A DNA stretch of 63,205 nt from positions 60,897 through 124,101 of the forward strand of contig CAZTEU010000004.1 in the NCBI GenBank assembly GCA_964612105.1. Direction: 5' to 3'. The translations under genes and the position numbers were made by a program. This document shows positions 9,020 to 63,205 of this stretch, piece by piece (within the stretch, counting starts at the first letter, position 1; each line of letters opens with the position of its first letter). The stretch comes from an uncultured Gammaproteobacteria bacterium. Lineage in GTDB: Bacteria; Patescibacteriota; Patescibacteriia; Magasanikbacterales; UBA922. Below the pieces are notes generated by a model, which worked only from the letters and a program-made list of their open reading frames with translations, searched no databases and was not told where the DNA came from.

Positions 9020-9031
9020 TCTTACACATAC

Positions 9032-11081: not shown

Positions 11082-11098
11082 ATTTGCAATATTCATAA

Positions 11099-11159
11099 AA
11101 AAACAACGCTAATCCCAGCGCTGTTTTTATTTGAGGTGGTTACTGGATGATGTTAGAAC
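11099..11159. repeat. Array junction C (core 11132-11159)
   Basis: Hairpin plus TGAGGTGGTTACTGGATGATGTTAGAAC; overlaps the stop codon of the neighbouring toxin-like gene. Confidence 0.85.
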
Positions 11160-11524
11160 TGGGTCTTCTCAAAGTTCCCCTGATCAATGTCTTCGATTGC
11201 ACTATCTAATGAATTAAGAATTAGAATCTTTGCTTTTTTATTATTCATTGACAGGTTTTCGCCAAACACCTTATCCTTTTTTAATCTAATCACAATTGGA
11301 ATGACAAGATTCTTTTGTTTATACATGAAAACAATTAATCTACCTGCCACCTTGTGAACCATTCTTAATTTAAATAGTTCTCCACCTGTATATCCCAGGT
11401 TCGAGAGTCGTACTTTCTGGCCACGCAATTTGTTTACAGCTTTTTTGATATCCTCCAACGAATAATATTTTTTAATCAGTTTGTATTCTTTTTGAAGAAA
11501 TGATTTCGTCAAAATCAGTATCAT
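11153..11524 (-). CDS. Putative RelE/ParE-like toxin
   Basis: Small basic protein, MILILTKSF start, LFKLRM..GRLIVF; downstream of an RHH-like gene. Confidence 0.5.
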   Translation of the reverse strand: MILILTKSFLQKEYKLIKKYYSLEDIKKAVNKLRGQKVRLSNLGYTGGELFKLRMVHKVAGRLIVFMYKQKNLVIPIVIRLKKDKVFGENLSMNNKKAKILILNSLDSAIEDIDQGNFEKTQF

Positions 11525-11529
11525 ACCTC

Positions 11530-11775
11530 CTATATATTTATTTTTTTGAGTGACTTACTTAGCTTATTTGTTTTTTCTATAATTTCTTTATCTGCAAATA
11601 CATCATCGTAGAATTCATTTTTTGCGTGCAAAGAAATACGCAAATCATCGTGAATATAAGCACGCATTGCCATTGTTAGTAATGCTTTTAGTGTTATTCC
11701 CTCTCTTTTTGTTTTTTTGAGTGCCTTCTCTTTTAGTTTTGCATCGCTCATGAATGTGACTTGTGTTTGGTTCAT
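11530..11775 (-). CDS. Putative RHH antitoxin (RelB/DinJ-like)
   Basis: QVTFMSDAKLKEKALKKTKREGITLKALL; own TTGACA-17-TATAGT promoter. Confidence 0.55.
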   Translation of the reverse strand: MNQTQVTFMSDAKLKEKALKKTKREGITLKALLTMAMRAYIHDDLRISLHAKNEFYDDVFADKEIIEKTNKLSKSLKKINI

Positions 11776-11836
11776 ATTGCTATATAGTTTATTACTACAT
11801 TTAAACTATATATTATGATTGAGTGTTTGTCAAGTA

Positions 11837-11897
11837 AAAAACAATACTAATCCTAGCGCTGTTTTAATTTGGGCTGGCTACTAGAGGACGTTAGAAC
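11837..11897. repeat. Array junction D (core 11870-11897)
   Basis: Hairpin plus TGGGCTGGCTACTAGAGGACGTTAGAAC. Confidence 0.9.
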
Positions 11898-12029
11898 TGG
11901 AATAATAAAAAAAGAACAAATTGTTCTTGTATGAAAGTCCATGTCCGCCCGCCCGTGCTTGTTGCTCGATGAGCGGACACGGACGGACGCGCTCCTTCTG
12001 GGCTCGTGCAGCGAAGGGGTGTAACACGG

Positions 12030-12335
12030 TCAGACTCTTGCGTGCTTTTGTACACGGGCTGCTTCGCTGGTAAGTCGTGGCTCTACGATCGAGGTGTCCT
12101 TTCCGTAACCTCGTGACCCATTGTTGACTATACAGCCGTTTTCCCAGGTGAGGTGGTGTGTGTGGCCTCTGTGAATGCAGCGGGCCACTTTGATCGGCTC
12201 CCAGTCTGCAAATCCTCTGGCGTATCCGACAAACAACCACTCAATTCCATCATTCCCCACAAGACTGTCTCCGCAGGTCAAACTCTCAAACTCATCTTGT
12301 GTGATTGCAGTCTTTTCAATGAGGTGTTGTAACAT
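12030..12335 (-). CDS. GC-rich orphan
   Basis: GGAGG SD upstream of ATG; 101-aa ORF. Confidence 0.6.
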   Translation of the reverse strand: MLQHLIEKTAITQDEFESLTCGDSLVGNDGIEWLFVGYARGFADWEPIKVARCIHRGHTHHLTWENGCIVNNGSRGYGKDTSIVEPRLTSEAARVQKHARV

Positions 12336-12602
12336 ATTGTCCTCCGTGCAAGGGGTATAAGCAAGTCAGGGTAGTATAATAATAGATGTGGGAGAAATAG
12401 GCAAGTTGGGATACAATGAGATGTATTGTGGTTGTAATAGAAAATAGCTTAAGTTAGTCAAACAAACGCTTAGACCTATTGACAAAAGGAGTTTTTTGTG
12501 TTAAGGTCTTTCCAGTTTTTCCTCTCGAGGATTTATCGTCAAGTGTGAAAGTCATACAAAGCGCGGTGATGGTCTCTGAGGGGTAATTCCTAGGAGGTCA
12601 TT

Positions 12603-12851
12603 ATGACAGCGCAGCCAGTAGAGGTCACTATCCTGTGGAATGGAGGATGGGATAGATACCTCGTCGACACAAGTATCACCGTCAGTGTTCCTGAAGCAGA
12701 GCTTCAGGGGAACGCCCGAATGTGGCCAACATTCGAGTGTGAGGAAGCCGAAGGTTCGTTCCTCAAAGCAAGCTTTAGTTCGGTCTTGAAAAAGTCCGTT
12801 ACCGAAGGTTGTGGGGTTCGCATTCTGAGGCGCCTCGGCGGCGGCGACTAA
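12603..12851 (+). CDS. GC-rich orphan
   Basis: AGGAGG SD; TTGACA at about 12479; about 100-nt leader. Confidence 0.6.
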   Translation: MTAQPVEVTILWNGGWDRYLVDTSITVSVPEAELQGNARMWPTFECEEAEGSFLKASFSSVLKKSVTEGCGVRILRRLGGGD

Positions 12852-12900
12852 TCGATGGCAAAAAAGCGGTACCTTTCGGGGTGCCGCTATTCTTTTCTAA

Positions 12901-12961
12901 AAAAACAACACCAGTCTTAATGTTGTTTTTAGGTGAGCCGAGTACTAGAGAGCGTCAGAGC
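12901..12961. repeat. Array junction E (core 12934-12961, 7 mismatches)
   Basis: Hairpin AAAAACAACA/TGTTGTTTTT plus TGAGCCGAGTACTAGAGAGCGTCAGAGC. Confidence 0.75.
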
Positions 12962-12981
12962 TGGGTGGGTGGTGTAAATTT

Positions 12982-13245
12982 CTACTTATAGACTTGCTCG
13001 TGTCCACCAACATCAATAAATATTACGTGAGTGTAGTTATTGTATTCTTCGAATATTAAGCGTATATTTCCCGAGACTGACACGGCTCTTTTTCCCAGCA
13101 TCAGACCTCGAAGTTTGTGGTTTTTTAGTGAAGTGTCGCTTGGGTCTTTTATAAGCCTTTCTATTGTTTTTGTAATTTTACTCTGAAGTTTGCATGGAAG
13201 CTTCTTAAATTGTTTTGTAAATCTTTTACTATAACTAATCTTCAT
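12982..13245 (-). CDS. RelE/YafQ-family type II toxin
   Basis: MKISYSKRFTKQFKKL...LKNHKLRG...VGGHEQVY. Confidence 0.9.
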   Translation of the reverse strand: MKISYSKRFTKQFKKLPCKLQSKITKTIERLIKDPSDTSLKNHKLRGLMLGKRAVSVSGNIRLIFEEYNNYTHVIFIDVGGHEQVYK

Positions 13246-13517
13246 AGTTTTTTCAGATAAGCTATCGCTTCATCTGCCTCCATTGGCTCGGTCACATTTA
13301 TTCCTTTCTTTGCCTCTTTACCTGCTTTTAATATTTCTTTTTCTTGTTGTACAGTGAGGCCGTTTTCTGTAATAAGAGGAAAAGGAACACCTTTTTGTAA
13401 TGTTATTTGTTTTAAGTAGAGTTTAATAGCTGTACTCATGTCTAATCCAAGACGATCTAGTATTTTTTTTGCAGAGGTCTTTGTTTTTTTGTCTACACGA
13501 ATTTGTATTGTAGTCAT
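13242..13517 (-). CDS. RelB/DinJ-family antitoxin
   Basis: MTTIQIRVDKKTK...LGLDMSTAIKLYLKQI...GVPF; 4-bp overlap with toxin. Confidence 0.9.
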   Translation of the reverse strand: MTTIQIRVDKKTKTSAKKILDRLGLDMSTAIKLYLKQITLQKGVPFPLITENGLTVQQEKEILKAGKEAKKGINVTEPMEADEAIAYLKKL

Positions 13518-13592
13518 AAATATATATTTGTATAAATACATAATAACATGTCTGTAGTGATGTTGTCAATACAGCTAATATTATTTCATCTT

Positions 13593-13697
13593 TCCAGACT
13601 GTCCCGCTACCCAATGTTAGAATAAAAAACACTGCCGTATGTAGCAGTGTTTTAGCTCTTTCAGAAAATTGAGCTGGCTACCAGAGGACGTTAGAAC
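13593..13697. repeat. Array junction F, long type (core 13670-13697)
   Basis: TTCCAG…CCCAATGTTAGAAT, hairpin AAAACACTGC/GCAGTGTTTT, then TGAGCTGGCTACCAGAGGACGTTAGAAC. Confidence 0.9.
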
Positions 13698-13702
13698 CCA
13701 AG

Positions 13703-14545
13703 TTAGGGCAAGAATTTAATGCTATCAACCATTTCATCTAATATTGTTTCAAAATTATTTATATCACCTCTTTCAATAATGGTTTGCGAGGTGATAACTA
13801 TGCTACTAAGTTCATTTTTTGGATTAAATAAGTAGTATTGTGCTGCTAGGGGTCCAGGAGATGGGTATATCGGAGAAAAACTTACTTTTGCTACTGTTAT
13901 ACCATGGGTGTTTTGAGATATGGTGCATTTTTTAATATCGCCCCACACCATTAGAGATTTACCGCTGTTTTTATAATCATATTCGCCGCTATCGATCCAC
14001 TTACAAACAGACTCAACCTTTTCTTTGTTCAGCCCCAGAGCGTCATCTTCCCAAGATAATCCGCGGTCTCCGCCCAGCCCGGATTTTCCATCAGTTATTG
14101 CTATGTATCGAGGGCTTCCAAAAAAATTTGAGAGTGTTAGATAGTAAAAGGGAATTCCCTCTTTTCCTTGTTCAACAATTTCTCTTGGGCTTATGCCATG
14201 CGGTTGCTGCACCTGTCCGATTTCACCAAAAGAGGCTGGGTACTCAAACGTGATGCCTAGATTTGAATCTGAAAATGCTTTTTTAATTGTGTTCTCAGGG
14301 TTGTTTATTAAATTAGTGAGTCTATCTATCTGCTCTTTTTTTATTCTTTTGGCTTCGTAATATCTGTCTGAATTTTCTTTGTTTGGGTCAATAACAGTTT
14401 GTTTAGGTGTCTCATCTTCACTAGAAATTTTTAAGGAGAAGTCCCCTTTGGTGTTTTGAGTAGAAGACATAATGACAAACACTAGCGCGAAAGATGTGGC
14501 CAGCAAAGGAATCCAAAATTCCTGACTCTTAAAATCTATCTTCAT
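13703..14545 (-). CDS. Membrane-anchored/secreted hypothetical protein
   Basis: Single N-terminal hydrophobic segment; 280 aa. Confidence 0.7.
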   Translation of the reverse strand: MKIDFKSQEFWIPLLATSFALVFVIMSSTQNTKGDFSLKISSEDETPKQTVIDPNKENSDRYYEAKRIKKEQIDRLTNLINNPENTIKKAFSDSNLGITFEYPASFGEIGQVQQPHGISPREIVEQGKEGIPFYYLTLSNFFGSPRYIAITDGKSGLGGDRGLSWEDDALGLNKEKVESVCKWIDSGEYDYKNSGKSLMVWGDIKKCTISQNTHGITVAKVSFSPIYPSPGPLAAQYYLFNPKNELSSIVITSQTIIERGDINNFETILDEMVDSIKFLP

Positions 14546-14604
14546 ATTTTTTATTTAATATGTTGTGATTATACCACAGTTCGGCATTCCAGTCCCCAGT
14601 AACA

Positions 14605-14665
14605 AAAAACAACGCTAATCTTAGCGCTGTTTTCATTTGAGCTGGCTACTAGAGGGCGTTAGAAC
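14605..14665. repeat. Array junction G (core 14638-14665)
   Basis: Hairpin plus TGAGCTGGCTACTAGAGGGCGTTAGAAC. Confidence 0.9.
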
Positions 14666-14672
14666 TTTTTGT

Positions 14673-15206
14673 CTACTTAGGGCCTAGTAAATCCTTGTGA
14701 AATTCATACAAAGAGCTTCCAACCATTTCAATTGCTTGTGTTTCTTTGTTATCGCTATTTATCAATACAGATTGAGCTTTTTCTGTGTCAACAAGCGCCA
14801 TTTCTACTGTTCCGTCTTTGTGCCCCTCCATGTAATACCCTCTTTTCTTTATCTTTTTAAGAATATTCGCATAATCTGAGTTTGTCATTGAGCGAACTCT
14901 CCAGACCTCATGTTTTTTGTGCTTGTTAAATTCCTCAAATATTTTATCGACTGTAAAAAGACGTTCGTTCACCTTCTGCCTGAAATTATCTGGATCCTCT
15001 ATTTTGTAATAATATCTGTTTCCCATTTTTGAGTGGTTAATAAAACCCTTTTCTTCCAAAGAGCGCAGATATTCCTGGCAACTTGTTCGTAGTATTCCTG
15101 TTTTGTCCGCGAGCTCAGATACTTTTGCACTTCCAAGTCTAAGAAGAGTTCTATATACAAGAATTTCTTTATCAGAAAAATTAAATTGTCTTAATAATTG
15201 TTCCAT
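14673..15206 (-). CDS. TrmB-like HTH regulator
   Basis: FNFSDKEILVYRTLLRLG...ILRTSCQEYLRSLEEKGF. Confidence 0.8.
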   Translation of the reverse strand: MEQLLRQFNFSDKEILVYRTLLRLGSAKVSELADKTGILRTSCQEYLRSLEEKGFINHSKMGNRYYYKIEDPDNFRQKVNERLFTVDKIFEEFNKHKKHEVWRVRSMTNSDYANILKKIKKRGYYMEGHKDGTVEMALVDTEKAQSVLINSDNKETQAIEMVGSSLYEFHKDLLGPK

Positions 15207-15832
15207 ATATTTTGGTACATTTCGCTAACCTCTTTATTCTTAAAACCAAATACTTGTAATTGGTCCCCAAACTCTACAAAAGCAACCTTGTTACTCCAAA
15301 TAAATAGCATTACATCTCCTTTTCGTTCTTTCACCTTTGGTGCAATTCCTTTTTGGTTGGATCTTTTGTGGTAGAAGGGCCAATAATCTCCAAGGTAATT
15401 AGCCAAGTGACTACTTTGTCCAATTATATGCATTTTCTTTTTTTCTCGAAGTGATTTCTCCAGCAATATCTTTACTCCATGAACATCTTTGGAATATGAG
15501 CGCAGTCTTAAAGGTTGCTCTGTCTTCTTATATTCCTTATGCATCGCAGGCACAAACTTCCTTACAGCACTCTCTTGCCTTTTCACATACTGCTTTAATG
15601 CGCCAATAGGTAGGGCGCGGAAGTCCAATACATCTCTGTATTTAGTAGAAGTGACAAGCTTCTTTTTTTTGAGTGACTCTAATACTAAATATGTGGTTGG
15701 TCTTTTAGTCCCCGCTCTTTTTGATATACCTAAAACACCGCCCTTCTTCATTGAGAGTAGGGCGCTGTATACAAGAGCTTCCTTGTGAGAAAGTCCAAGG
15801 TTTTCTAGGGCTTTTATACGCTTAATATCCAT
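15191..15832 (-). CDS. TrmB-like HTH regulator
   Basis: LENLGLSHKEALVYSALL...TKRPTTYLVLESL. Confidence 0.8.
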   Translation of the reverse strand: MDIKRIKALENLGLSHKEALVYSALLSMKKGGVLGISKRAGTKRPTTYLVLESLKKKKLVTSTKYRDVLDFRALPIGALKQYVKRQESAVRKFVPAMHKEYKKTEQPLRLRSYSKDVHGVKILLEKSLREKKKMHIIGQSSHLANYLGDYWPFYHKRSNQKGIAPKVKERKGDVMLFIWSNKVAFVEFGDQLQVFGFKNKEVSEMYQNIWNNY

Positions 15833-15932
15833 ATTGCTGTCAATAATAACATCAATTATCAATATATAAATAATATTATATAGTGCACTGTCCGTCAAGG
15901 GGGCGGACATTCATTCTTTTTTGGAGGTCGTT

Positions 15933-16574
15933 ATGCTTGTTCATTCTACTAACTGCAGAAGGCGGACGATTCCGCGCCTGAAAAGACCGCGGAGCTGTTT
16001 CCGCGTTCCCACGAATACCGTGCTGGTCGTGGTCGATCCGCAGAAAGCCTTCGGTTCGGTCGTGTCAGTTCCGCATGTCGAAGAGGCGGTCTCCAACATG
16101 CGTAAGGTGATCTCTTACTGGCGCAAGCGCGGAGGGAAGGTGATCCTCACGAGGCACATCTACAAGGATGAGAGTTGCGTCGGATCGGTCTCAGATTTCA
16201 TCCCGCCGATTTTCGGCGTGTTGAGGGAAGGTTCGCCGATGGGCGAGTTCCATGATGGCATCTGGTTCGATGGCGTCATCATCATCGACAAAACCGAGTT
16301 CAACGCCTTCATCGGGACGACGCTCGAGAAGCAGCTCCGCAAGCTCGGCGCCTCCCATTTCCTCGTCTGCGGTCTCACGACCCCGATCTGCGTGGAGGGT
16401 ACTGCGCGTGGCGGTGTTGAGCGTGGTTTCAAGGTGACGGTCGTCTCGGACGCTTGTGCATCTCAGCCCATGGGTGAGGAATCCGCTCGGGAGGCACACG
16501 ACTCTGCCATCGTTCGACTCGGCTACATCTTCGCTAAGGTGGTCAGCACCGAGGATCTCCTGTCGCTGCAGTAG
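15933..16574 (+). CDS. Isochorismatase-like cysteine hydrolase (GC-rich)
   Basis: D-K-C triad motifs VVVDPQ, IDK, TPICV; GGAGG SD; terminator AACATCT/AGGTGTT at about 16620. Confidence 0.85.
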   Translation: MLVHSTNCRRRTIPRLKRPRSCFRVPTNTVLVVVDPQKAFGSVVSVPHVEEAVSNMRKVISYWRKRGGKVILTRHIYKDESCVGSVSDFIPPIFGVLREGSPMGEFHDGIWFDGVIIIDKTEFNAFIGTTLEKQLRKLGASHFLVCGLTTPICVEGTARGGVERGFKVTVVSDACASQPMGEESAREAHDSAIVRLGYIFAKVVSTEDLLSLQ

Positions 16575-16639
16575 GCAAAAAGGTTTCCGCGTTTTCCTGA
16601 AAAAACGCGAGCACAAAAGAACATCTGTAAAGGTGTTTT

Positions 16640-16770
16640 TTTGTTTAGTTCCAACCTCCCCACACCATTCCAGTCGCCAGTACCCAAGGTTAGAACCAAA
16701 AACACTGCTAGATTTAGCAGTGTTTTAACTCTTTCGGGAAAATGAGCTGGCTACTAGAGGACGTTAGAAA
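16640..16770. repeat. Array junction H, long type (core 16743-16770)
   Basis: Same layout as F; TGAGCTGGCTACTAGAGGACGTTAGAAA. Confidence 0.9.
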
Positions 16771-16947
16771 TGGAATTGTACTACAGTGACTTAGTTTGTC
16801 TGCTAAGTCCCCACAACATGCTGAGTGTTGTTCTCATGAATTCTACAAAATCACCACCCTCAACTAAAATCAATTTTTTGGTTTGGAGAATATTCAAAAA
16901 TACTGCATAAATGCAGTATTTTTGAAGCGAATGTGAAAATCATGATT

Positions 16948-17424
16948 TTAATCAAGTTTTTTGAAATTAAGCCAAGTCCCGCTTGCCGACTTTTCATCTT
17001 CAGGGAGAAGGCCAACAAGAGCCTCTGTAAGACTATTGTTTTCATGGCCTGCTCTGAACAGAGCCCTTTCATCATCAATTCTCTCACCCTCTCTGAAGAC
17101 AGACCCCTCATGTAAATCTGCAGCCATTTGACGTAGAACACTATGTTGATGAGCCAGAACAATTTGTTTTGCAATGAGCTTCATATAAGATTCGTCTGCT
17201 TCTTCAATGGCATCGCCATAAGGGTCAGACTCTCTACTGGGAAGATGTTCTTTCCCGAGTTCACGAACCTCAGCAAGAACATCATCAAATGTCGGAACTT
17301 TATCTTGGTAAGCACGGTCAAGTTCCTCAAAATCAAGTCGATTATCCATCTCTGATTCTTGGTTAGAGGTATCGCTCTCAATATCTTTTTTGGGTACTTT
17401 CCTCCCCATTCCTTCATTATTCAT
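16948..17424 (-). CDS. Acidic hypothetical protein, copy 1
   Basis: 158-aa ORF; start uncertain. Confidence 0.6.
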   Translation of the reverse strand: MNNEGMGRKVPKKDIESDTSNQESEMDNRLDFEELDRAYQDKVPTFDDVLAEVRELGKEHLPSRESDPYGDAIEEADESYMKLIAKQIVLAHQHSVLRQMAADLHEGSVFREGERIDDERALFRAGHENNSLTEALVGLLPEDEKSASGTWLNFKKLD

Positions 17425-17544
17425 AATGAAATAATATAATTTATTAATAATATATTAACTATACACTAATTAATCCAAAGTTTCAAGACCTTTTGAATGC
17501 TGACCAATTCCTGTGGTAATTAATCAGACGTGTGGCTGACATTT

Positions 17545-17675
17545 CTTGTTCAGTTCTAATCTCCTCACACCATTCCAGTCGCCAGCACCCAAGGTTAGAA
17601 CCAAAAACACTGCTAGATTTAGCAGTGTTTTAACTCTTTCGGGAAAATGAGCTGGCTACTAGAGGACGTTAGAAA
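17545..17675. repeat. Array junction I (core 17648-17675)
   Basis: Core identical to H. Confidence 0.9.
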
Positions 17676-17852
17676 TGGAATTGTACTACAGTGACTTAGT
17701 TTGTCTGCTAAGTCCCCACAACATGCTGAGTGTTGTTCTCATGAATTCTACAAAATCACCACCCTCAACTAAAATCAATTTTTTGGTTTGGAGAATATTC
17801 AAAAATACTGCATAAATGCAGTATTTTTGAAGCGAATGTGAAAATCATGATT

Positions 17853-18329
17853 TTAATCAAGTTTTTTGAAATTAAGCCAAGTCCCGCTTGCCGACTTTTC
17901 ATCTTCAGGGAGAAGGCCAACAAGAGCCTCTGTAAGACTATTGTTTTCATGGCCTGCTCTGAACAGAGCCCTTTCATCATCAATTCTCTCACCCTCTCTG
18001 AAGACAGACCCCTCATGTAAATCTGCAGCCATTTGACGTAGAACACTATGTTGATGAGCCAGAACAATTTGTTTTGCAATGAGCTTCATATAAGATTCGT
18101 CTGCTTCTTCAATGGCATCGCCATAAGGGTCAGACTCTCTACTGGGAAGATGTTCTTTCCCGAGTTCACGAACCTCAGCAAGAACATCATCAAATGTCGG
18201 AACTTTATCTTGGTAAGCACGGTCAAGTTCCTCAAAATCAAGTCGATTATCCATCTCTGATTCTTGGTTAGAGGTATCGCTCTCAATATCTTTTTTGGGT
18301 ACTTTCCTCCCCATTCCTTCATTATTCAT
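17853..18329 (-). CDS. Acidic hypothetical protein, copy 2
   Basis: Identical to 16948..17424. Confidence 0.6.
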   Translation of the reverse strand: MNNEGMGRKVPKKDIESDTSNQESEMDNRLDFEELDRAYQDKVPTFDDVLAEVRELGKEHLPSRESDPYGDAIEEADESYMKLIAKQIVLAHQHSVLRQMAADLHEGSVFREGERIDDERALFRAGHENNSLTEALVGLLPEDEKSASGTWLNFKKLD

Positions 18330-18553
18330 AATGAAATAATATAATTTATTAATAATATATTAACTATACACTAATTAATCCAAAGTTTCAAGACCTTTTG
18401 AATGCTGACCAATTCCTGTGGTAATTAATCAGACGTGTGGCTGACATTTCTTGTTCAGTTCTAATCTCCTCACACCATTCCAGTCGCCAGCACCCAAGGT
18501 TAGAACCAAAAACACTGCTAGATTTAGCAGTGTTTTAAGGGTTTTGGAAAATG

Positions 18554-18625
18554 AGCGGACGACCGGAATCGAACCGGCATCATCGGCTTGGAAGGCCGAG
18601 ATAATAACCATTATACGACGTCCGC
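18554..18625 (-). tRNA. tRNA-Gly(TCC)
   Basis: Acceptor GCGGACG/CGTCCGC, anticodon loop CTTCCAA, T-loop TTCGATT. Confidence 0.95.
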
Positions 18626-55199: not shown

Positions 55200-56342
55200 T
55201 TATATAACATTGTGAGGATACTCCTTTCCTCTATTCTGGAAAGAAAGTATTTTAGGGTTTTGTATTACCCCATCACGGATTTCCATTGCCTTAGATATTG
55301 TCTCATTTTTTGCCCACTCATTAGGGCCTCCCATTACTACAGGCAAGAAAGGTATTAAAGCTTTGGATATTTCCCATGAGGCAGAGTTCCAATACCAGCT
55401 TGGACTGTGATCCACTGCATAGTAGTATTTTCCATCAGACTGGAACATTGGGTTGTCAAAAGTGGTTGGTTTTGCACACCAGAAGCCCATTCCCTCATCA
55501 CAGCTAATATCTATAATAAGCGCCCCGTTTCTCAACTTATGTGAATCCATTGCGCCAACAAATGTCTTTGGATTTTCTGGGTTCTGCATCGTACCATTAA
55601 CTATTATTTCTACGTCAGAGAGTGCGTCTGCAAATAGTTTTATGCTTCCATCTTCCTCTACAGCCAACATATTTCCAGAGTCATTTTTTCTCATTTGCTT
55701 ATACACCACTCCCGGTAACTGATCCTTCACCTGTGTAGATGGGCGACCTGTATATACAGTAATGTCATTAAACCCTTGCCCTTGTAGTGCGTATACAGCC
55801 CCCCGACTTACAGACCCAAAACTAATTACCACAGCTTTTCTTTGTTTTCCATAGTTTCCATCTACTCCAATTAAACTAAGTGCGTGTTTTACACCTGCAT
55901 ATCCTGCAATCTCATTGTTCTTATAAAAAGTATGCAACTCACTATTACCCGCCTTTCCCCAAGAGAACATTGCTTCCCATGCTATTACAGATAGTTTTCT
56001 GTCTATAGAAACTTGAGTAATTTCTTTCTGTTGCACAAAATGAGGCCATCCCCACACAAGAGAACCTTCTTTTACCTGCGCTAAATCTTCTGCCAGAGGT
56101 TTTGGCATTAACACGCAATCAAAGTTATTTAGTATTTCGTGACTATTAGCTACACGCCCAGATGTAAGATTAGCAAGCTCTCCATCTGTCATCCCAAACT
56201 TAATACCATATCCTTGTTCGAAAGTAATCAATCTTCTTAGTTCTTCCGGTATAAGCGCTATGTGTTCTGGATGGATAGGTACTCTATTCTCATTTTCCTT
56301 GCGTGATTTTCCTACTACTCCTACTGTTAGGTATTGTGACAT
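55200..56342 (-). CDS. N5-(carboxyethyl)ornithine synthase-like (AlaDH/PNT family)
   Basis: KENENRVPIHP, SFGSVSRGA, DISCDEGMGF, YAVDHSPS. Confidence 0.8.
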   Translation of the reverse strand: MSQYLTVGVVGKSRKENENRVPIHPEHIALIPEELRRLITFEQGYGIKFGMTDGELANLTSGRVANSHEILNNFDCVLMPKPLAEDLAQVKEGSLVWGWPHFVQQKEITQVSIDRKLSVIAWEAMFSWGKAGNSELHTFYKNNEIAGYAGVKHALSLIGVDGNYGKQRKAVVISFGSVSRGAVYALQGQGFNDITVYTGRPSTQVKDQLPGVVYKQMRKNDSGNMLAVEEDGSIKLFADALSDVEIIVNGTMQNPENPKTFVGAMDSHKLRNGALIIDISCDEGMGFWCAKPTTFDNPMFQSDGKYYYAVDHSPSWYWNSASWEISKALIPFLPVVMGGPNEWAKNETISKAMEIRDGVIQNPKILSFQNRGKEYPHNVI

Positions 56343-56377
56343 ATATTGTATAAATAAAATGCAGTGTACATTATATA

Positions 56378-56575
56378 TTAGTCCTTGTAAACCTTTGCAA
56401 CTCTCCCAACCTGCCCAGACTCTAGTCTTACTTTTATACCCCTATGATGAGCAGGGGAGCTAGTAAGAATATCTTTTACGATTCCGTATGTTATTTCACC
56501 TGTAGGCTGATCTTTTTTTAATATTATAGCCACCTTTGAACCCCTCTCAATATCTTTCCTTTGTGTTCCATCCAT
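56378..56575 (-). CDS. YwbE/DUF2196 family protein
   Basis: ILKKDQPTG..T.GIVKDILTSS..H.RGIKVRL..GQVGRV. Confidence 0.85.
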   Translation of the reverse strand: MDGTQRKDIERGSKVAIILKKDQPTGEITYGIVKDILTSSPAHHRGIKVRLESGQVGRVAKVYKD

Positions 56576-56681
56576 ATATATTTATTAAATATATTATTAC
56601 TACACAGATTATTGCATACTTATGTTTTTTTTAAAATACCAAAGAACCGCCCAAAGGCGGTTCTATATAATTTATTATACC

Positions 56682-57065
56682 CTATACTTTCTGTGGCATG
56701 CTTGGGCCTGCTCCATATTTGTTGTTTCCTGGAGTGCTTCCCAAAACTAGAAATACAAACATAACGATAGAACCTACAAAAGGAACTAGTTGTATAAAAT
56801 ACCACCAGCCACTACGACCTGTGTCATGTAGTCTCCTTACCACTACAGATATACTAGGCAGTATCATTGCAACAATATACAACAGATATACTATAGAAAC
56901 TATGTTATAAAGAGTCTCTGACCCCTGTACTAGAGCTGCTAGTACAGCTATGCCCACTATAATTAACACATTTATAAGTAGAAACATCCAAAACTCTTTT
57001 CTACTTGCTCGTCCTGCAAAGGTAGCATATTTTTTTAGTGCACCTATATAATACTGCATATACAT
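56682..57065 (-). CDS. DUF805 family membrane protein
   Basis: FAGRASRKEFW, RRLHDTGRSGWW, NKYG. Confidence 0.9.
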   Translation of the reverse strand: MYMQYYIGALKKYATFAGRASRKEFWMFLLINVLIIVGIAVLAALVQGSETLYNIVSIVYLLYIVAMILPSISVVVRRLHDTGRSGWWYFIQLVPFVGSIVMFVFLVLGSTPGNNKYGAGPSMPQKV

Positions 57066-57124
57066 TATTTTAAATAAAAAACATGAATTAACTCATGCAT
57101 TATATCATATTTGCCCTTGTTTCA

Positions 57125-57556
57125 CTATATGGACTGCAAAATTGCCTGCTCTAAATCTTCTGGCTCATCTGTACCAATCCTGTACAACTTTCCATTCTCC
57201 ATTTCTATCTGCACAGCATCAAACCCAGACACATTAAATATCCACGCACGAGGCTTCACACTAAATTTTATTCCCCAGCCATAATACCAGTGATTTTTTA
57301 CTACTTTTGCAGATACAATATCTTCCAACTTAAATTTCTTCCTAAAAATCCCATAACCAAACCTTATCCGCAAATATTTTTCATTTATCATTACAGTAAG
57401 AGTGGTAAAAGAAGCAATAAGTAGTAAAATAATGACCATGAAAACGACAGCTGCTGGTTCGTAGCCTGTATATCTCAGTATAAACAAGAAATAGAAAACA
57501 AGAAAAACCAACACAGCTATCATTAAGTGACCAATTTGCGTGTGCTTATAAATCAT
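57125..57556 (-). CDS. Membrane protein with PH-like domain
   Basis: Two TM segments, then YGWGIK and RIGTDEPEDL. Confidence 0.7.
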   Translation of the reverse strand: MIYKHTQIGHLMIAVLVFLVFYFLFILRYTGYEPAAVVFMVIILLLIASFTTLTVMINEKYLRIRFGYGIFRKKFKLEDIVSAKVVKNHWYYGWGIKFSVKPRAWIFNVSGFDAVQIEMENGKLYRIGTDEPEDLEQAILQSI

Positions 57557-57568
57557 ACCTTCTTATGT

Positions 57569-58276
57569 CTATTTTTTTCTATAGAAATAAAAATCTGCAA
57601 AAGACTCCTTCTCCGGATCTTCTTTTAATGTAAATTCATTATCTATTTTTGTCATTAACTCCCAACCATGTAGATTTCTACTTATCCAATCTGTAAACTT
57701 CCTATGCTTCACATGTTGAGCAGGTGCTTTTGTTTGCCTGTCCGTGTTAGAAGAATAGATAATCACATACTTATTAGCAGAAGCAAACAAATCATTCATA
57801 TATTTCTCGTATACATCATCTTCCACCAAATGAAATATTACATCCAAAGACATTGTTGCATCTACGCTAAATGTTTTGAGGTTGTCATAAAAGTACTGAG
57901 GGTCATAAAGGAAAAATGATTTACTATTCTCTTTCTCAAACTTATCCTTACACACTGTAATACTCTTTTTTGAGACATCGAAACCAATGTACTTAGGGAT
58001 ATTAAACAAAGATAGCTGATGACCGTCTCCACAGCCAAACTCTAGTACAGTGTTTATATTTTTTTCTTTTATAAAATCATTAATCGCCTCAGCCTTAAAC
58101 TTCGCCAACCTTCCATACGAACCTGCCCCAGAGTTCCCCCCTGACTCATACCTCTCTTCCCAATACTTCTTAGAATTAAAATCCCTGTCCTTTCTTAACG
58201 AACGAAGTATAGACCGAGCAATAGAAGACAATAGCTTGTTCTTTTTTATTAGGTTTTTAAATATGGTCTTGCTCAT
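57569..58276 (-). CDS. Class I SAM-dependent methyltransferase
   Basis: VLEFGCGDG motif I, GFDVS, SLDVIFHL. Confidence 0.85.
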   Translation of the reverse strand: MSKTIFKNLIKKNKLLSSIARSILRSLRKDRDFNSKKYWEERYESGGNSGAGSYGRLAKFKAEAINDFIKEKNINTVLEFGCGDGHQLSLFNIPKYIGFDVSKKSITVCKDKFEKENSKSFFLYDPQYFYDNLKTFSVDATMSLDVIFHLVEDDVYEKYMNDLFASANKYVIIYSSNTDRQTKAPAQHVKHRKFTDWISRNLHGWELMTKIDNEFTLKEDPEKESFADFYFYRKK

Positions 58277-58323
58277 ATTTTTATTTCATCTGGTAGTACC
58301 TTATTGTTCTGCATCTTTTAGTA

Positions 58324-58680
58324 TTACCTAATAATGCAATGGGAAAAAAACTTCTCACGAAAATTTACAGCTTCTTCAATTTCTTCATCTGATAATGAAA
58401 CACCTTCCGGAACCAGTATTAGCTTATCGTCGTCATCTTCATGTCTGTGTATTATGGCTATACAAACCCCAGTTACTTTTTCTAAAGGTGTTTGTGGTCC
58501 TATATAATATGCATCTAATTCTTCTCCGTCAGGAGCTAAGGTTCCAGGAACATATCCATAATTCTGAGTATACAAAGCTCCTTTGTAATAAGTTCCATAT
58601 GCTTGGTCTATAATAATTGAGACTTTTTCGCCCAGGTACTCTTTACACATTTCCAAAGATTTAGAGTTGTTCATTTTCAT
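58324..58680 (-). CDS. Small inorganic pyrophosphatase-like protein
   Basis: NYGYVPGTLAPDGEELDAY and DDDK. Confidence 0.8.
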   Translation of the reverse strand: MKMNNSKSLEMCKEYLGEKVSIIIDQAYGTYYKGALYTQNYGYVPGTLAPDGEELDAYYIGPQTPLEKVTGVCIAIIHRHEDDDDKLILVPEGVSLSDEEIEEAVNFREKFFSHCIIR

Positions 58681-58736
58681 AAAGCACAGCTGTTTTATAC
58701 ATTTATATTTGCGTATATATTAGACAATAACAACAA

Positions 58737-59288
58737 TTAATTCAACCAAGGTGGCTTAGATTTAATAACCTTATTGTATATTTTACAACTCTTAATATGA
58801 GCTCCCTTTAGGTAACCTGTACTAACTAAAAACTCATTTACTATCTCACCACCTGTAAACTTAAATGTTTTTTTAAATAACTTTGTCCATTCCTCTCTTG
58901 TAAGAGGATAATTCTTGCCCAACCACTTCTTAAAAGAACCAAACTCTTCTTGGATTTGTAGTATTACGTTTGCATTATGAATAGTAGCATCAATTTTTAG
59001 CCTGTTACGAATAATTCCAGCATCGTTCAATAATCTTTGCCTATCTTTTTCCTTATACGATGCAACTTTTGCAATATTAAAATTATCAAATGCTTTCTTA
59101 AAATTCTTCCTCTTCTTTAGTATTGTTGTCCAACTCAATCCAGCCTGGTTAATCTCCAGTATTAGACGTTCGAACAGCTCATTATCATTATCAATAGCAA
59201 AACCATAAGCTGTGTCATGATATATGCGATGTACGTTAGTTTTATCGAAGCCCCCTACAGCTTCGCAGTATGATTTAGGTTTTTCCAT
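58737..59288 (-). CDS. tag: DNA-3-methyladenine glycosylase I
   Basis: YHDTAYG, LILEINQAGLSW..IL.KR, IIRNRLKI, FKFTG. Confidence 0.92.
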   Translation of the reverse strand: MEKPKSYCEAVGGFDKTNVHRIYHDTAYGFAIDNDNELFERLILEINQAGLSWTTILKKRKNFKKAFDNFNIAKVASYKEKDRQRLLNDAGIIRNRLKIDATIHNANVILQIQEEFGSFKKWLGKNYPLTREEWTKLFKKTFKFTGGEIVNEFLVSTGYLKGAHIKSCKIYNKVIKSKPPWLN

Positions 59289-59307
59289 TCCTATAATATA
59301 TAACAAG

Positions 59308-59556
59308 TTATTTACCACCCCTATCTTTAACAATAATTACTAATATCCAAATGATGGAGATAGCAAATATTACTGCTGTTATAAGCATGGTTATATAGTC
59401 CCATACAATATAACAAGGTAAAGAAGTGACTATTTCTTGCTTACAAGGAAAAAAGTAATTGTATGATTTTCCAATAATTAGCTCTGTATTTGAAAAATGG
59501 TAGATCAAAGCAGATATTATTGCGGAGACAAGAGGGATTTTTATTTTTTTTATCAT
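59308..59556 (-). CDS. Small two-TM hypothetical protein (cassette-like)
   Basis: Start at 59556 preferred; the track ORF extends into the attC-like site. Confidence 0.6.
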   Translation of the reverse strand: MIKKIKIPLVSAIISALIYHFSNTELIIGKSYNYFFPCKQEIVTSLPCYIVWDYITMLITAVIFAISIIWILVIIVKDRGGK

Positions 59557-59692
59557 AATTACATTATAGTGTGTAAATAAAACTTTTAATTTTACATAAC
59601 GTTTGCGTATATGCGAACGTTGTGAATACTTGTATGCCAACATTGGCGAAGCCAACGTACAAGTATGAGTAATTTGGGCGGAGCCCATGGAC

Positions 59693-59920
59693 TTATTTTT
59701 TCCCTTTTCTAAAGTCGCCTTCTTTTAATCCACTGTGAAGCAAAATCGACTGAAATGTACCATGTGGTATTTCCTTCTTCCTAACTTTAATAGTGACTTT
59801 TAATGTTTTCCCTTTTGTAGCTTTTTCATATCTGGCATGCGATCCTTTTTGCCTAACAAAAAAGAAGCCCTTTTCTGATAGGACTTTTAGTACAATTTTT
59901 AATGAAATTGGTCTAGGCAT
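59693..59920 (-). CDS. HicA-family toxin
   Basis: KGFFFVRQKGSH and EIPHGTFQSIL. Confidence 0.9.
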   Translation of the reverse strand: MPRPISLKIVLKVLSEKGFFFVRQKGSHARYEKATKGKTLKVTIKVRKKEIPHGTFQSILLHSGLKEGDFRKGKK

Positions 59921-60131
59921 GTTGGAATTTAAGTCGTTCCAACACAGGACGCTCTATTTTTTGTATTTTAGAAAGAGGAACATCTTCAAGATGAAGTTCC
60001 AGCGCCTCCTGTAATGATTCTAGGGCTTCTTTTTTGGAATCACCAAAACTGGAAACTCCTGTATTAAGATTCCAAGATACATAGTGTTTACCCTCTTTCC
60101 ACACGACATTTTTTAAGTCGATTTTGCGCAT
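59913..60131 (-). CDS. HicB-family antitoxin (short)
   Basis: GVSSFGDSKKEALESLQEALELHLE. Confidence 0.88.
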   Translation of the reverse strand: MRKIDLKNVVWKEGKHYVSWNLNTGVSSFGDSKKEALESLQEALELHLEDVPLSKIQKIERPVLERLKFQHA

Positions 60132-60221
60132 ATTTCTAAGATAATTATACTTGTACTTTACTTAAAAAGAAAAAATAAGTCAAATTGGGCGTAGCCGGTT
60201 ATATGTTGTTATGTGATGCGC

Positions 60222-60461
60222 TTAAAAATTAAAATCTTTTTCCAAACATTCAACATATATTCTCTGTGCTTCTAATTCCATCTCTTCACTTACTTTTATG
60301 AAGTTTTTAGGTGGAAATTCTTCTTGTGTTGTGTTTGTGACTTTAGAATATGCTTCGCTCCAGCAGTTTTTAACTTTTGAGCCAGTTATTAAAAACCAAA
60401 TAAAGATAATGACACCGAGTAGCATAATTACAATGAATGTCCATTTTATTATTTTTTTCAT
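60222..60461 (-). CDS. Small membrane-anchored cassette protein
   Basis: N-terminal TM; lies between attC-like ends. Confidence 0.65.
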   Translation of the reverse strand: MKKIIKWTFIVIMLLGVIIFIWFLITGSKVKNCWSEAYSKVTNTTQEEFPPKNFIKVSEEMELEAQRIYVECLEKDFNF

Positions 60462-60491
60462 ATTTGTATTTTAATAATTATTAAGCATTTC

Positions 60492-60583
60492 ACACAACGT
60501 TTCGGCATAGCCGAAGTTTTGCAGTGGTAAAATGGGAGCGCTAGCGACCCACCACTGCAAAATTTGGGTGAGCGAGCGTTAAA
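60492..60583. repeat. attC-like site 2 (right arm missing)
   Basis: ACACAAC-GTTTC-GGCATA, internal stem TTTTGCAGTGG/CCACTGCAAAA, AATTTGGGTGAGC motif. Confidence 0.55.
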
Positions 60584-60642
60584 AATAAAATCACTTAAAA
60601 CAGTTGTTTAATTCCAAAGACTAGGAGACCGATAACTCCTAA

Positions 60643-60798
60643 AAACAAAATCTATTCTTTGCTTTCTTTTATAATATACTCGCTATACCACTTGCCGCTG
60701 CTGGTTTCTTAAATCCTATTGTTGCGGCTGTTGCTATGAGCTTAAGCAGTGTTTCTGTGGTCGGGAATAGCTTAAGAATTAGGAGGAAAGGATTTTAA
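60643..60798 (+). pseudogene. C-terminal remnant of a heavy-metal P1B-type ATPase
   Basis: [45 protein letters not shown]; in-frame stop immediately upstream. Confidence 0.85.
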
Positions 60799-60938
60799 TA
60801 TTTTCTCTATCAATCACTTGGGGCTATCTTTTGATTAAGAAGACTAACTTTTATAAGGTTGACAAGTTTGCCCTCCCGTGCTATATATAACCCCACAAAA
60901 CCCGCCCTTTAGTCTGGGCACGTTCTTTGGAGAATCAA

Positions 60939-61424
60939 ATGAAGAAAGTAGTACTTTCTGCACTTCCTTTTATGGTGTACGGTATTGTGGCGTATTTGAT
61001 CTCGGCTCATGTCTTCTATGCGGCGTCTGGTTCTTTCAACGCATCTACCGCATTTGCCGCCAGATTAGCTACCTTCACTGCCGTATACACCACCTTCCTC
61101 TCTGCAGCCACTATCAGTGATACTTTCAGAAGTACTATCGCCGATCTGGGCTTCGCCGTCGCTTTTGCTTTCGCTTGCGCTTACATCATCACTGTCTTCT
61201 CCACCAACCTCACCAACACTACCTTCTTTGCCTACTTTGTCACCCTTGTTTTCGCCGCTGCCTACGCTGCCGCCATGCCCACCATAATCGGCGGTATCAG
61301 TGGCTCCATCGATCTAGGCGAGTATCCAGTCAATGTGGTCTACTGGAAGGCTTTCCTTGTCTATCTTCTTGAGGCGATAGCCATCTTCACATTCGTCTAC
61401 TTCTACCATATCAGTGTTGAATGA
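60939..61424 (+). CDS. GC-rich multi-TM orphan
   Basis: TTGACA promoter, GGAG SD, 3' GC hairpin and CACCT/AGGTG terminator. Confidence 0.65.
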   Translation: MKKVVLSALPFMVYGIVAYLISAHVFYAASGSFNASTAFAARLATFTAVYTTFLSAATISDTFRSTIADLGFAVAFAFACAYIITVFSTNLTNTTFFAYFVTLVFAAAYAAAMPTIIGGISGSIDLGEYPVNVVYWKAFLVYLLEAIAIFTFVYFYHISVE

Positions 61425-61571
61425 TATAATGGAGGAGAACCTAACCCCTCGTGCCCACCGACTAAGCATCGGCTGGGCACGGGCGGGCAAACACAATTAA
61501 CCACCTAAATAGGTGTTTTTTTATTTGCCCCAAGAGATTGATAGTGTAAAAAAAGAAATGGGAAAACAATT

Positions 61572-61677
61572 TCGTACAACGTTTCGGCATATCTGATGTT
61601 TGCCGTAGCGTAGCGGAGGCAAATATGGGTGGAGGCTTTTGTATAAAAGCCGTAACCAGATATGCCGTGTTGTACGA
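61572..61677. repeat. attC-like site 3 (complete)
   Basis: TCGTACAAC-GTTTC-GGCATATCTG … CAGATATGCC-GT-GTTGTACGA. Confidence 0.8.
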
Positions 61678-61735
61678 TGTAATGAAAAATTCTTAATTCG
61701 CGATAGCGAATTATTTAATCGGGCAAATTTATTTT

Positions 61736-62554
61736 TTAAGTTTTTTCTTGCAATTTCAAATCTTCTTTCGAGACACCTAATAATTCATGTAGATATTGAT
61801 ATACTTCTTCAGTATTATCTCTGGAAAATTTTGCAATAATTTCATCCTTTGAAACATAGTCAGGTATTAAATATTCATCTTCTTCTAATCCAAAATGATT
61901 GTCCGTATTACTGTTTATTACAGAATCAATTGGAATTTTAAGAACATAAATTTCATATTGAAGCTGTTCTGCTGCGTCCGGTACATTTCCAGTACCAGCC
62001 TCTGCACAAGGAATACTGGTTGTGGCCGAAATGAATGACGAACCACCTCTTTGACTTTGTTTCATAGCAAGTTCTTCTGCGATACTTTGGGAAGATGGTT
62101 TGGCTACTGTAAGATAACGTTCATCTCCATAAATTGCATAACCGACTTCGTCTGATGATTGAAGTTGTTCCGTTAACTGTTTGGTTGATAATTTTCCATA
62201 TCCATAGGTTCTTGTGTAAAAACCTTTCTCGTCTAAATTAGGATGATCCCCGCGTAGTAAATAAATAAAACCGTCTTTGATAAATTTTGGATTTAACGTA
62301 GTTTTCCATAATTCAAATTGTAATTCAGAAATTCTTGTTCTATCTTGGTATCCATTTTCTCTAAGAATTTCCTCAATATCACGACTGGAATATAATAAAC
62401 TTTTCCTATCAAATAAAGAAACGAGTTCCGGGTTATCTTTGATATTTTCCCAGTTCGCCCAAAGATTATCTAATCGTTCTTTACGTTGTTCTAGATTTTC
62501 TTGTACTGCTTCTGGATTTTTTATGAATTGTGGGTCTCTGCCAAAATTTTCCAT
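61736..62554 (-). CDS. Cassette protein, putative R-S-E ADP-ribosyltransferase fold
   Basis: YLLRGD, SFISATTS and EEDEYL in the expected order. Confidence 0.5.
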   Translation of the reverse strand: MENFGRDPQFIKNPEAVQENLEQRKERLDNLWANWENIKDNPELVSLFDRKSLLYSSRDIEEILRENGYQDRTRISELQFELWKTTLNPKFIKDGFIYLLRGDHPNLDEKGFYTRTYGYGKLSTKQLTEQLQSSDEVGYAIYGDERYLTVAKPSSQSIAEELAMKQSQRGGSSFISATTSIPCAEAGTGNVPDAAEQLQYEIYVLKIPIDSVINSNTDNHFGLEEDEYLIPDYVSKDEIIAKFSRDNTEEVYQYLHELLGVSKEDLKLQEKT

Positions 62555-62625
62555 ATATGTAGATTTAAAAAATAAATTTGCCCCGATTAATTTGCCCGAC
62601 AGGGCAAAAAGAATTTTTCATTATT

Positions 62626-62811
62626 TCGTACAATGTACCTGCATAAGAGAAGTTGCGCCGTCTAAATCATCGAGATCGTCATCATCAAGCATACAGTATA
62701 GATACCATCAATCGTCAATATCAGTAGCGCAATTTGGGAGAGGGGAAACGCAACACCTTATCAAAATTAAATTTTTGCTTTTCCCCGAACCTCTTATGCA
62801 GTGTTATAAGA
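62626..62811. repeat. attC-like site 4 (long loop)
   Basis: TCGTACAAT-GTACC-TGCATAAGAG … CTCTTATGCA-GT-GTTATAA. Confidence 0.75.
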
Positions 62812-62829
62812 TGTAATCAAAAGCCGCCG

Positions 62830-63174
62830 TTATTTACCGTTTAGTTTTCTAATCCTTTTAATAACTGAATCTTGGTACAATCTAAAAGCTTTTCGTTTCT
62901 CCTTTGGGTATAGATATGGCGTCCCAAGAACTTCTCTACAATGTCCGCATGTTAGTTTAGGAATACTTTTCAGGCTTATATTTTGAAGATCAATAAATTT
63001 TGTTGGGTGAAGTATTCGATCCATATATAAGCGCCGTAAGTTCCCAGAACCGTCTTTTTGATACACCAAAAGTAATTTTTCACACTTACGACAGGACACA
63101 TTCAACAACCTTGAGTGTCCGCCCCGACTCGATTTATACTTATCTCGTTTAAACGAAAAGCTTGTTCTCTTCAT
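62830..63174 (-). CDS. Basic zinc-ribbon cassette protein
   Basis: CRKC and CGHC; YQKDGSGNLRRLY. Confidence 0.7.
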   Translation of the reverse strand: MKRTSFSFKRDKYKSSRGGHSRLLNVSCRKCEKLLLVYQKDGSGNLRRLYMDRILHPTKFIDLQNISLKSIPKLTCGHCREVLGTPYLYPKEKRKAFRLYQDSVIKRIRKLNGK

Positions 63175-63194
63175 ATAAGGCTTTTGATTATTTC

Positions 63195-63205
63195 ATATAA
63201 CGTTC
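63195..63205. repeat. Start of attC-like site 5 (cut by window edge)
   Basis: ATATAAC-GTTC, preceded by an inverted repeat of 62803-62825. Confidence 0.55.

Follow-up and report, generated by a model that had tools for sequence, protein, structure and literature searches.

Integrons (IntI, attI and attC, including sedentary chromosomal integrons and CALINs) are the closest described relatives of the system considered here. Classical attC sites are about 57-141 bp long and contain no genes. To our knowledge, attC sites have been regarded as short, gene-free signals, and toxin-antitoxin (TA) pairs as stabilising arrays in the form of separate cassettes. The TA cassettes of chromosomal integrons, such as the Vibrio cholerae superintegron, have their own promoters and are credited with stabilising the array through the death of cells from which they are lost (PMC13108822). 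Foreign genes are placed within attC-type sites by IS1111-attC insertion sequences and attC-associated group II introns (PMC7923331). In the literature on integrons and attC sites in Patescibacteria and the candidate phyla radiation, and on attC sites with TA systems, genes inside attC-type sites were found only as IS elements and introns, and no integron was found described in this kind of bacterium.

The locus analysed here lies in the window, a stretch of 63,205 nucleotides, and shares much with integrons: its sites are imperfect palindromes whose outer boxes resemble RYYYAAC/GTTRRRY and whose inner boxes are specific to each site, they are predicted to fold as single strands, crossover apparently occurs at G|TT by an attI divergent to a tyrosine recombinase, and small promoterless cassettes in one orientation turn over at the level of the population. 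Unlike integrons, the system has a recombinase without the IntI-specific insertion (residues 184-241), a site family with 5/2-nt spacers, a conserved T[TA]TGGG and two internal hairpins, breakpoints that fall also at the opposite R box, and sites of up to about 621 nt with genes inside. Type II TA pairs with their own promoters occur in cassette arrays both here and in Vibrio-type TA cassettes (PMC13108822), but there the pair is the cassette body between two attC sites, whereas here it lies between L'' and L' of one site. IS1111-attC elements and group II introns bring their own transposase or reverse transcriptase, whereas the hic insert consists of hicA and hicB only and, unlike those elements, imitates the hairpin it replaces by means of an inverted-repeat stem. 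A MITE-like transposon would likewise have terminal inverted repeats, here of 13-18 bp, but a target-site duplication is absent. As in HicAB type II systems (PMC4848639, PMC2701414), there is a HicA_toxin domain with a GSH motif and a small overlapping upstream partner; unlike in those systems, the 72-aa partner belongs to DUF7387, shows only a weak HicB signal and lacks a separate DNA-binding domain.

Organisation of the array end

The host genome is 0.94 Mb (98% complete), and contig C4 ends with the window. Positions 59594-63205 form that end of an integron-like cassette array which lies farthest from the recombinase, and have the following features beyond the hic-containing site.

60222-60461, - strand: cassette gene for a 79-aa protein, whose attC-like site is the hic-containing site
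60492-60580, + strand: half site C, made up of R box, L box, hairpin and motif with the right arm absent, followed by a P-type ATPase 3' fragment
about 60620-60797, opposite strand to site C: 3' fragment of a P-type ATPase gene
60927-61424, opposite strand to site C: 165-aa membrane ORF
61574-61675, + strand: site A, intact, 102 nt, L box 10/10, with a population breakpoint at GTT|GTAC
62628-62809, + strand: site B, intact, 182 nt, L boxes 10/10 complementary
63195-63205, + strand: left box of the next site, ATATAACGTTC, at the contig end

The hic-containing site is the last of the array and belongs to the cassette of the 79-aa gene (60222-60461), which has no homolog in 240 genomes. The left ends typical of the site family recur at window positions 60487, 61569, 62623 and 63190, and the contig stops at 63205 because two different sites come next in the population. 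The 272-aa cassette gene (61736-62554) has no Pfam match, and is swapped for other genes in further contigs. An Rfam search of 56000-63205 matched nothing.

Several observations concern the surroundings. After site C (60492-61568), about 1 kb lies on the opposite strand and comprises the ATPase fragment, the membrane ORF and a terminator-like hairpin; in three other genomes (G090, G107 and G238) junctions likewise fall directly past the motif. A second, unlike repeat family occupies 5000-18600, in units of about 60-90 nt ending in ...GACGTTAGAAC (at least 8 copies), and tandem 905-bp repeats lie at 16637-18551, beside a tRNA-Gly gene.

One layout is common to 40 distinct intact sites collected from relatives and metagenome contigs. 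The first half runs from an R box (RNNYAAC) through a 4-5-nt spacer starting GT, an L box, A[AT]G and a hairpin to the T[TA]TGGG motif; the second half consists of an optional second hairpin, a G(T/A)A(A/G)CC element, the L' box, 1-2 nt, GTTRNNY and GATG. Left ends read ATTTY-RNNYAAC-GTT, and the interior of ordinary sites reads L''-A[AT]G-TTTxxx...xxxAAA-T[TA]TGGG, with L''-A[AT]G-T in 39 of the 40 and T[TA]TGGG in 35. The R''-L''...L'-R' arrangement is, as in attC sites, an imperfect palindrome that folds single-stranded: site A is predicted to fold into a single hairpin whichever strand is taken (-24.8 and -30.3 kcal/mol, z = -7 to -7.9). Complementarity of the R boxes within intact in-array sites is mostly just 3-5/7, and the arm-arm duplex energy averages -13.8 kcal/mol for cognate arm pairs and -6.2 +/- 2.2 for non-cognate ones. 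Judged by the exchange of cassettes at their boxes (below), members of the family act as recombination sites of integron type.

Mini-hairpins of the GC-GNA-GC type (GCGAAGC, GCGGAGC, GCGTAGC) occur at hairpin tips and in the motif, in the window at 59643-59655, 59676-59686 and 60187-60196. Such mini-hairpins are very stable in single-stranded DNA, and their recurrence is consistent with sites that function as a single strand.

Recombinase, attI and cassette turnover

A 270-aa tyrosine recombinase at the end of contig C8 (G000:C8), accompanied by an attI-like site, heads the array. Its best solved relative is the integron integrase VchIntIA (2A3V), matched at E 2e-46 in two pieces (11-183 and 242-317) that leave IntI residues 184-241 outside the alignment; the match to TIGR02249 is similarly divided (positions 1-178 and 237-313, 131 + 89 bits) and lies below the cut-off of 265. 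Judged from these alignments, the recombinase is without the IntI-specific insertion. Homologs are found 4-10 kb from arrays or hic sites, divergently transcribed, in four further genomes (G053, G236, G091 and G213).

About 175 nt upstream of the recombinase start, on the other strand, contig C8 and three further contigs that encode the identical protein (L109, L110 and L112) have a common sequence, ...AAC|TAGGGTATATACGAAC...GGGGTATATACGTCC..., and three different first cassettes adjoin the same ...RYYYAAC|TAGGGTATATACG at attI. Locus L112 differs from L109 in that precisely one cassette (a site and a 225-aa gene) is missing at attI; the comparison indicates gain or loss of a cassette there, with the crossover at RYYYAA|C (G|TT on the gene strand). 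As in integrons, attI is beside and divergent from the recombinase gene and is joined to cassettes at G|TT.

Environmental contigs from this organism that are identical to the window part from it, or from one another, exactly at the boxes. Locus L035, for example, equals the window up to ...GCCGTGTT and then continues into another cassette (GTT|AGCT vs GTT|GTAC), and the final bases of the window (ATATAACGTTC) are followed in the population by two different sites and at least 5 different cassettes. The canonical box is used at attI and at the window end. In three comparisons within the population the break falls at the opposite R box (+ strand GTT|NNNN), namely L035 (window 61669-61675), L066 vs L070, and L069 vs L071; the same site is therefore joined to different genes, as is site A to a 272-aa or a 587-aa gene. 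Both strands of these near-symmetric sites may have recombined. The comparisons together indicate that it is at their AAC|GTT boxes that the folded attC-like sites exchange cassettes.

Past 63205, two alternative sites (L066 and L069, + orientation) follow the same cassette with the R box in common. Their L boxes are near-identical, with one compensatory change (GCGTGTATCTG/CAGATACACGC vs GCGTATATCTG/CAGATATACGC), and their interiors are wholly different; one interior contains two similar hairpins, the second with a TTTGAC...GTCAAA stem resembling that of the hic module.

The hicBA module and its site

The site at the array's last position, about 621 nt long, comprises the following elements.

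59594-59600, + strand: left R box ACATAAC (GTTATGT on the gene strand), the canonical crossover box
59601-59615, + strand: spacer GTTTG (59601-59605) and left L box CGTATATGCG (59606-59615), of the common class GCGTRTATSNG
59624-59669, + strand: ordinary internal hairpin ('hairpin 2'), GAATACTTGTA ... TACAAGTATGAG, with a GCGAAGC tip mini-hairpin at 59643-59655; a homologous hairpin exists in G059
59671-59685, + strand: motif copy 1, AATTTGGGCGGAGCC, the family T[TA]TGGG plus the 5' arm of the second internal hairpin
59690-59702, + strand: left inverted repeat of the hic module, GACTTATTTTTTC, which includes the hicA stop codon
59693-59920, - strand: hicA toxin gene, 75 aa, intact, with GSH motif (Pfam HicA_toxin PF07927, E 1.7e-13, 50.9 bits)
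59913-60131, - strand: hicB-like antitoxin gene, 72 aa, overlapping hicA by 8 nt (Pfam PF24113 DUF7387, E 1e-8)
60155-60183, - strand: promoter-like site of hicBA, sigma-70-like (TTGACT, 17 nt, TAAAGT)
60169-60181, + strand: right inverted repeat of the hic module, GAAAAAATAAGTC, which pairs with the left repeat in the fold
60182-60196, + strand: motif copy 2, AAATTGGGCGTAGCC, made of the hic repeat end AAATT, the 3' arm of the second hairpin (GGGC..) and the pre-L' element GTAGCC
60197-60218, + strand: right arm, with L' GGTTATATG (60197-60205), TT (60206-60207), GTTATGT (60208-60214) and then a GATG tail

On the + strand the left side thus reads ATTTT-ACATAAC-GTTTG-CGTATATGCG-AAC-hairpin-AATTTGGGCGGAGCC-CATG-GACTTATTTTTTC-hicA and the right side hicB-GAAAAAATAAGTC-AAATTGGGCGTAGCC-GGTTATATG-TT-GTTATGT-GATG, the right arm being GGGCGTAGCCGGTTATATG. 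The first-pass annotation, made from the letters of the window, had described two arms, two motif copies flanking an insert, and hicA-hicB between them, and each of these is present where it was placed. It had also taken the arms for attC-like ends, which they are: both are true members of the family (about 40 distinct sites, with spacers of 4-5 and 1-2 nt). The left arm (59594-59626) is in addition near-palindromic, with a second AACGTT core (ACATAACGTTTGCGTA|TATGCGAACGTTGTGA), and the L box is followed by AACGTT in this site vs AAGTTT in the family.

The hicBA genes represent a putative self-promoted TA module. Matches of the 72-aa partner to HicB-type proteins are weak (HicB_lk_antitox, E 0.023; PDB HicB 9svk, E 0.28). 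The -35 hexamer of the promoter straddles the junction between the right repeat and motif copy 2, and relatives also conserve ATTTGACTT ahead of hicB. The window's gene pair has at its two ends a 13-bp inverted repeat without a mismatch, and across loci the module is bounded by an inverted repeat of 13-18 bp (TTTGACTTATTTTTT / AAAAAATAAGTCAAA). The hicB promoter and inverted repeat, to which the AAATT of motif copy 2 belongs, accompany hicAB throughout, with GTCAAATTTG in 16 of 30 genome loci.

hicAB genes within sites of relatives

HicB homologs are encoded in 42 of 240 genomes of the order, and metagenomes supplied 80 more loci; nesting was counted over the 79 distinct hicAB loci with enough flank. 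In 15 of these a family left arm, L''-AAG, lies directly against TTTGAC at the hicA stop. Both arms are present at nine loci, and are cognate in four: G040 and G213 (each 10/10 of the 10 scored L-box bases), the metagenome locus L134 (10/10) and G091 (8/10). In G040 and G213 the arms are identical and the L boxes (GCGTATAGCAG/CTGCTATACGC) match 11/11 by eye; their HicB proteins are only 55-58% identical to that of the window. The hic-containing sites in G213, G040 and G091 measure 567-572 nt. In the predicted fold of the G040 site (581 nt as folded; z = -6.5), the MFE and the centroid structure alike pair the R box, the 11-bp L box and the 17-19-bp repeat stem.

In the window as in these four relatives, the TA pair lies between L'' and L' of one site. 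An ordinary cassette body would lie between R' and R'', and hicAB was rejected as such since the module is between the L boxes. Most hic loci have the native right junction GTC|AAATTGGG, and the boundaries AAG|TTTGAC ... GTCAAA|TTTGGG occur beside at least 10 different L-box sequences. Because ordinary sites have L''-A[AT]G-T and T[TA]TGGG at the same places, the hic module replaces a hairpin exactly: in the nested relatives, as aligned, its inverted repeat takes the exact place of the first internal hairpin's stem, and the genes take that of the loop. Since the relatives carry the same gene-inside-site layout with intact sites, this layout looks like a recurrent, inherited design rather than an accident.

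An accidental origin would consist in hicAB, as an ordinary cassette or chromosomal TA pair, lying between arms of unrelated decayed sites, with no meaning to the nesting. The complementarity of the window arms is inside the range of non-cognate pairs, as such an origin would predict. Against it, hicAB lies between cognate arms at four independent loci, the left arm abuts hicA at the same base in 15, an intact hic site is predicted to fold as one structure, and both window arms have the correct orientation and spacers and the flanking ATTTT and GATG tails. Chance juxtaposition is consequently strongly disfavoured and very improbable.

Other long or unusual sites occur in relatives. In G213:C8 a further long site (L106 3573-4107) of 535 nt has an 8-bp exact L box, a GC-rich structured interior and a promoter-like TTGACA..TAGGAT; its interior yielded no convincing ORF and no Rfam match. 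This site suggests that cargo within sites is not confined to hicAB. The same array contains a match to hammerhead type III below threshold (L106 4459-4527; 35 bits, gathering score 48.5). In G040 (L017/L051, 1130-1240 and 2130-2265) a repeated ORF-less unit immediately precedes full sites, and consists of a mini-site of about 40 nt (R box, GC-rich 9-bp stem, GGTAC loop, R box) and a 45-54-nt body. At the G215 locus (L061) a left arm, hicAB and the motif lie between direct repeats of about 43 nt made of a tRNA 3' end and terminator (TCCGTCGGCACA.AAAAATACTCTATGGTTTAGAGTATTTTT), which looks like integration at a tRNA gene.

One interrupted site or two

The first-pass annotation had called the two window arms complementary and had placed hicAB within one attC-like site. 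The R boxes do match 7/7, but a full match is also seen in 8.5% of the family's non-cognate R pairs, the L boxes agree at 7/10, and the arm-arm duplex of -8.3 kcal/mol is equalled by 15% of non-cognate pairs, so that the pairing is not above chance. The placement within one site gains from the recurrent layout and the intact arms of relatives, but the arms in the window are not demonstrably cognate. Folding of the long site, proposed at the same time as a check, spoke against it: in the 638-nt stretch the paired part is the 13-bp inverted repeat at the hicAB ends, and the outer arms stay unpaired. Among hic loci, the search for a better left-arm partner of the window's right arm gave G172 at -7.7 kcal/mol, no better than the left arm that the window itself has.

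The other proposed check, for an uninterrupted site in relatives, succeeded. A homolog in G059 (L021 992-1130) is 82% identical over the left 99 nt, variable hairpin included. There the motif is followed by GGGCGAAGCCC-AGAAAA-GGGCTGAGCC-L'-R', the two halves standing 6 nt apart as the arms of a small symmetric hairpin, and GCCC-AGAAAA-GGGC in G059 corresponds to GCCC-ATG[module]AAATT-GGGCGTAGCC-L'-R' in the window. Both junctions in the window lie at the ends of the module's inverted repeat, and by eye the rare GGGCGNAGCC form is restricted to the window copies and G059, being absent from the hic-site flanks inspected. G059's own arms are themselves weakly paired (-5.3 kcal/mol), so the weak pairing in the window fits this type of site. 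For these reasons (junctions at repeat ends, the restricted GGGCGNAGCC form and the weak G059 arms) the favoured reading, to which we give somewhat more credence than doubt, is that the window has a single site of G059 type whose second internal hairpin carries the module in its loop.

The first-pass annotation had noted that copies of the loop motif flank the insert, and had proposed that the loop motif is a secondary insertion site or that the TA pair was captured within the recombination site. Nothing was found in favour of the motif as an insertion target, and, whether the window has one site or two, the copies are no insertion-made duplication, since both halves pre-exist in the uninterrupted G059 site and AAATT belongs to the hicB promoter and repeat. 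As a target-site duplication the copies would also differ at 2-3 of 15 positions.

The position of the module in the window is peculiar. Directly left of GACTTATTT, 29 related loci read AAGTTT, whereas CCCATG at these six positions (junction CCCATG|GAC) occurs in the window only, and the window has an ordinary hairpin and the motif ahead of hicA where nested loci have the L box. One history that would give this arrangement is the fusion of two adjacent sites then at the end of the array, a native hic site (R-L-AAGTTT-hicAB-motif-L'-R') and after it an ordinary G059-type site, through a single deletion that eliminated a short cassette body together with the facing halves of the two sites (the far one of the hic site, the near one of its neighbour), leaving a hybrid pseudo-site with non-cognate arms. 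The failure to demonstrate cognate arms in the window agrees with this, as does the combination of a native right junction, GTC|AAATTGGG, with a unique left one, which fits a one-off deletion. Adjacent sites of the required kind have precedents, a site lying 19 nt from a hic site in G091 and a mini-site 54 nt from one in G040, and site C in the same window is likewise truncated directly past its motif. Moreover, the arms are non-cognate at five of the nine hic loci elsewhere that have both, and the right arm of the window is not specifically closest to that of G059: the similarity ranks 7/42 over 34 nt and 19/42 over 24 nt, and holds at the family level only. Such a deletion would, however, have had to end within about 3-6 nt of the module's inverted repeat with the hicA stop untouched, and both neighbouring sites would have needed the rare GGGCGNAGCC form, in the single-hairpin geometry of G059. 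No pre-deletion form of the locus was found among relatives and metagenome loci, which also weighs against a fusion, and we regard this history, which the first-pass annotation had named as the one that would refute its view, as unlikely. Neither a direct ancestor nor a variant free of hicAB was found, which counts against the one-site reading.

Alternatively, hicAB bounded by its inverted repeat could be a small mobile module that is not inherited with one site but enters, as a secondary event, the hairpin loops of various sites; template switching at hairpins, the array's recombinase or some further enzyme would move it. The same module boundaries beside at least 10 different L boxes would be expected of such an element, and so would the different hairpin position in the window, every other nested locus having the first hairpin position with AAGTTT on the left. 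At L127 and L134 the module and right arm are common and the left arm differs exactly from the L box outward, and copies with the GTCAAATTTG end are found also outside arrays, beside housekeeping genes. Yet no transposase or recombinase gene is aboard and no target-site duplication is present, and arm swaps could equally be due to gene conversion from site to site or to homologous recombination across the 450 bp of shared hicAB; L127 and L134 are, besides, about 12% different throughout, with no recent event visible. We regard a mobile module as doubtful.

Whichever way it arose, the module is not seen to leave. No contig lacking hicAB was found: every contig read had the order 79-aa gene, hicB, hicA, in look-ups with HicB (24 contigs), the 79-aa protein (24) and the Tag protein (14). 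The single deviating downstream flank (L033) has its junction 20 nt past the R box, within a foreign mnmE gene, and looks like a chimera. Because the outer arms are poorly complementary and no contig is without the module, the window's copy is probably a fixed site, recombinationally weak or dead, with its TA genes intact.

Proposed organisation and implications

The best explanation of the whole, which we hold to be reasonably probable, is that of an integron-like array end in which hicBA is housed inside sites, the window's copy in a second hairpin. In this lineage hicBA would sit inside attC-like sites and replace an internal hairpin of their variable region. The inverted repeat would act as an adaptor stem which, in the single strand, closes the cargo of about 450 nt into a stem-loop; with the cargo closed off, the outer L and R boxes should still be able to meet, as modelled by folding of the intact relative G040. 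An addiction module so placed would be inseparable from the recombination site, to be moved or lost with the cassette, and by analogy with Vibrio TA cassettes (PMC13108822) the pair would penalise excision or deletion of this array end. The copy in the window would no longer recombine.

A broader proposal, for which we see the case as evenly balanced, is that small-genome bacteria of the candidate-phyla type have an undescribed integron variant, with a short IntI/Xer-like integrase, sites that house cargo and crossing over at both R boxes. The interior of such sites would be modular, housing a TA pair with an adaptor stem in some and, elsewhere, a 535-nt non-coding insert. With the R box of either strand usable, genes and site interiors could be shuffled independently.

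If these views are right, cassettes or array ends would be made harder to lose in a new manner, by a working site whose own hairpin contains an addiction module. Sites of attC type would then tolerate, and perhaps exchange, half a kilobase of cargo in their variable part when an adaptor stem restores the fold. This would bear on the length limits of single-stranded recombination substrates, on how cassettes and their sites are assembled, and on the retention of accessory genes in ultra-small genomes.
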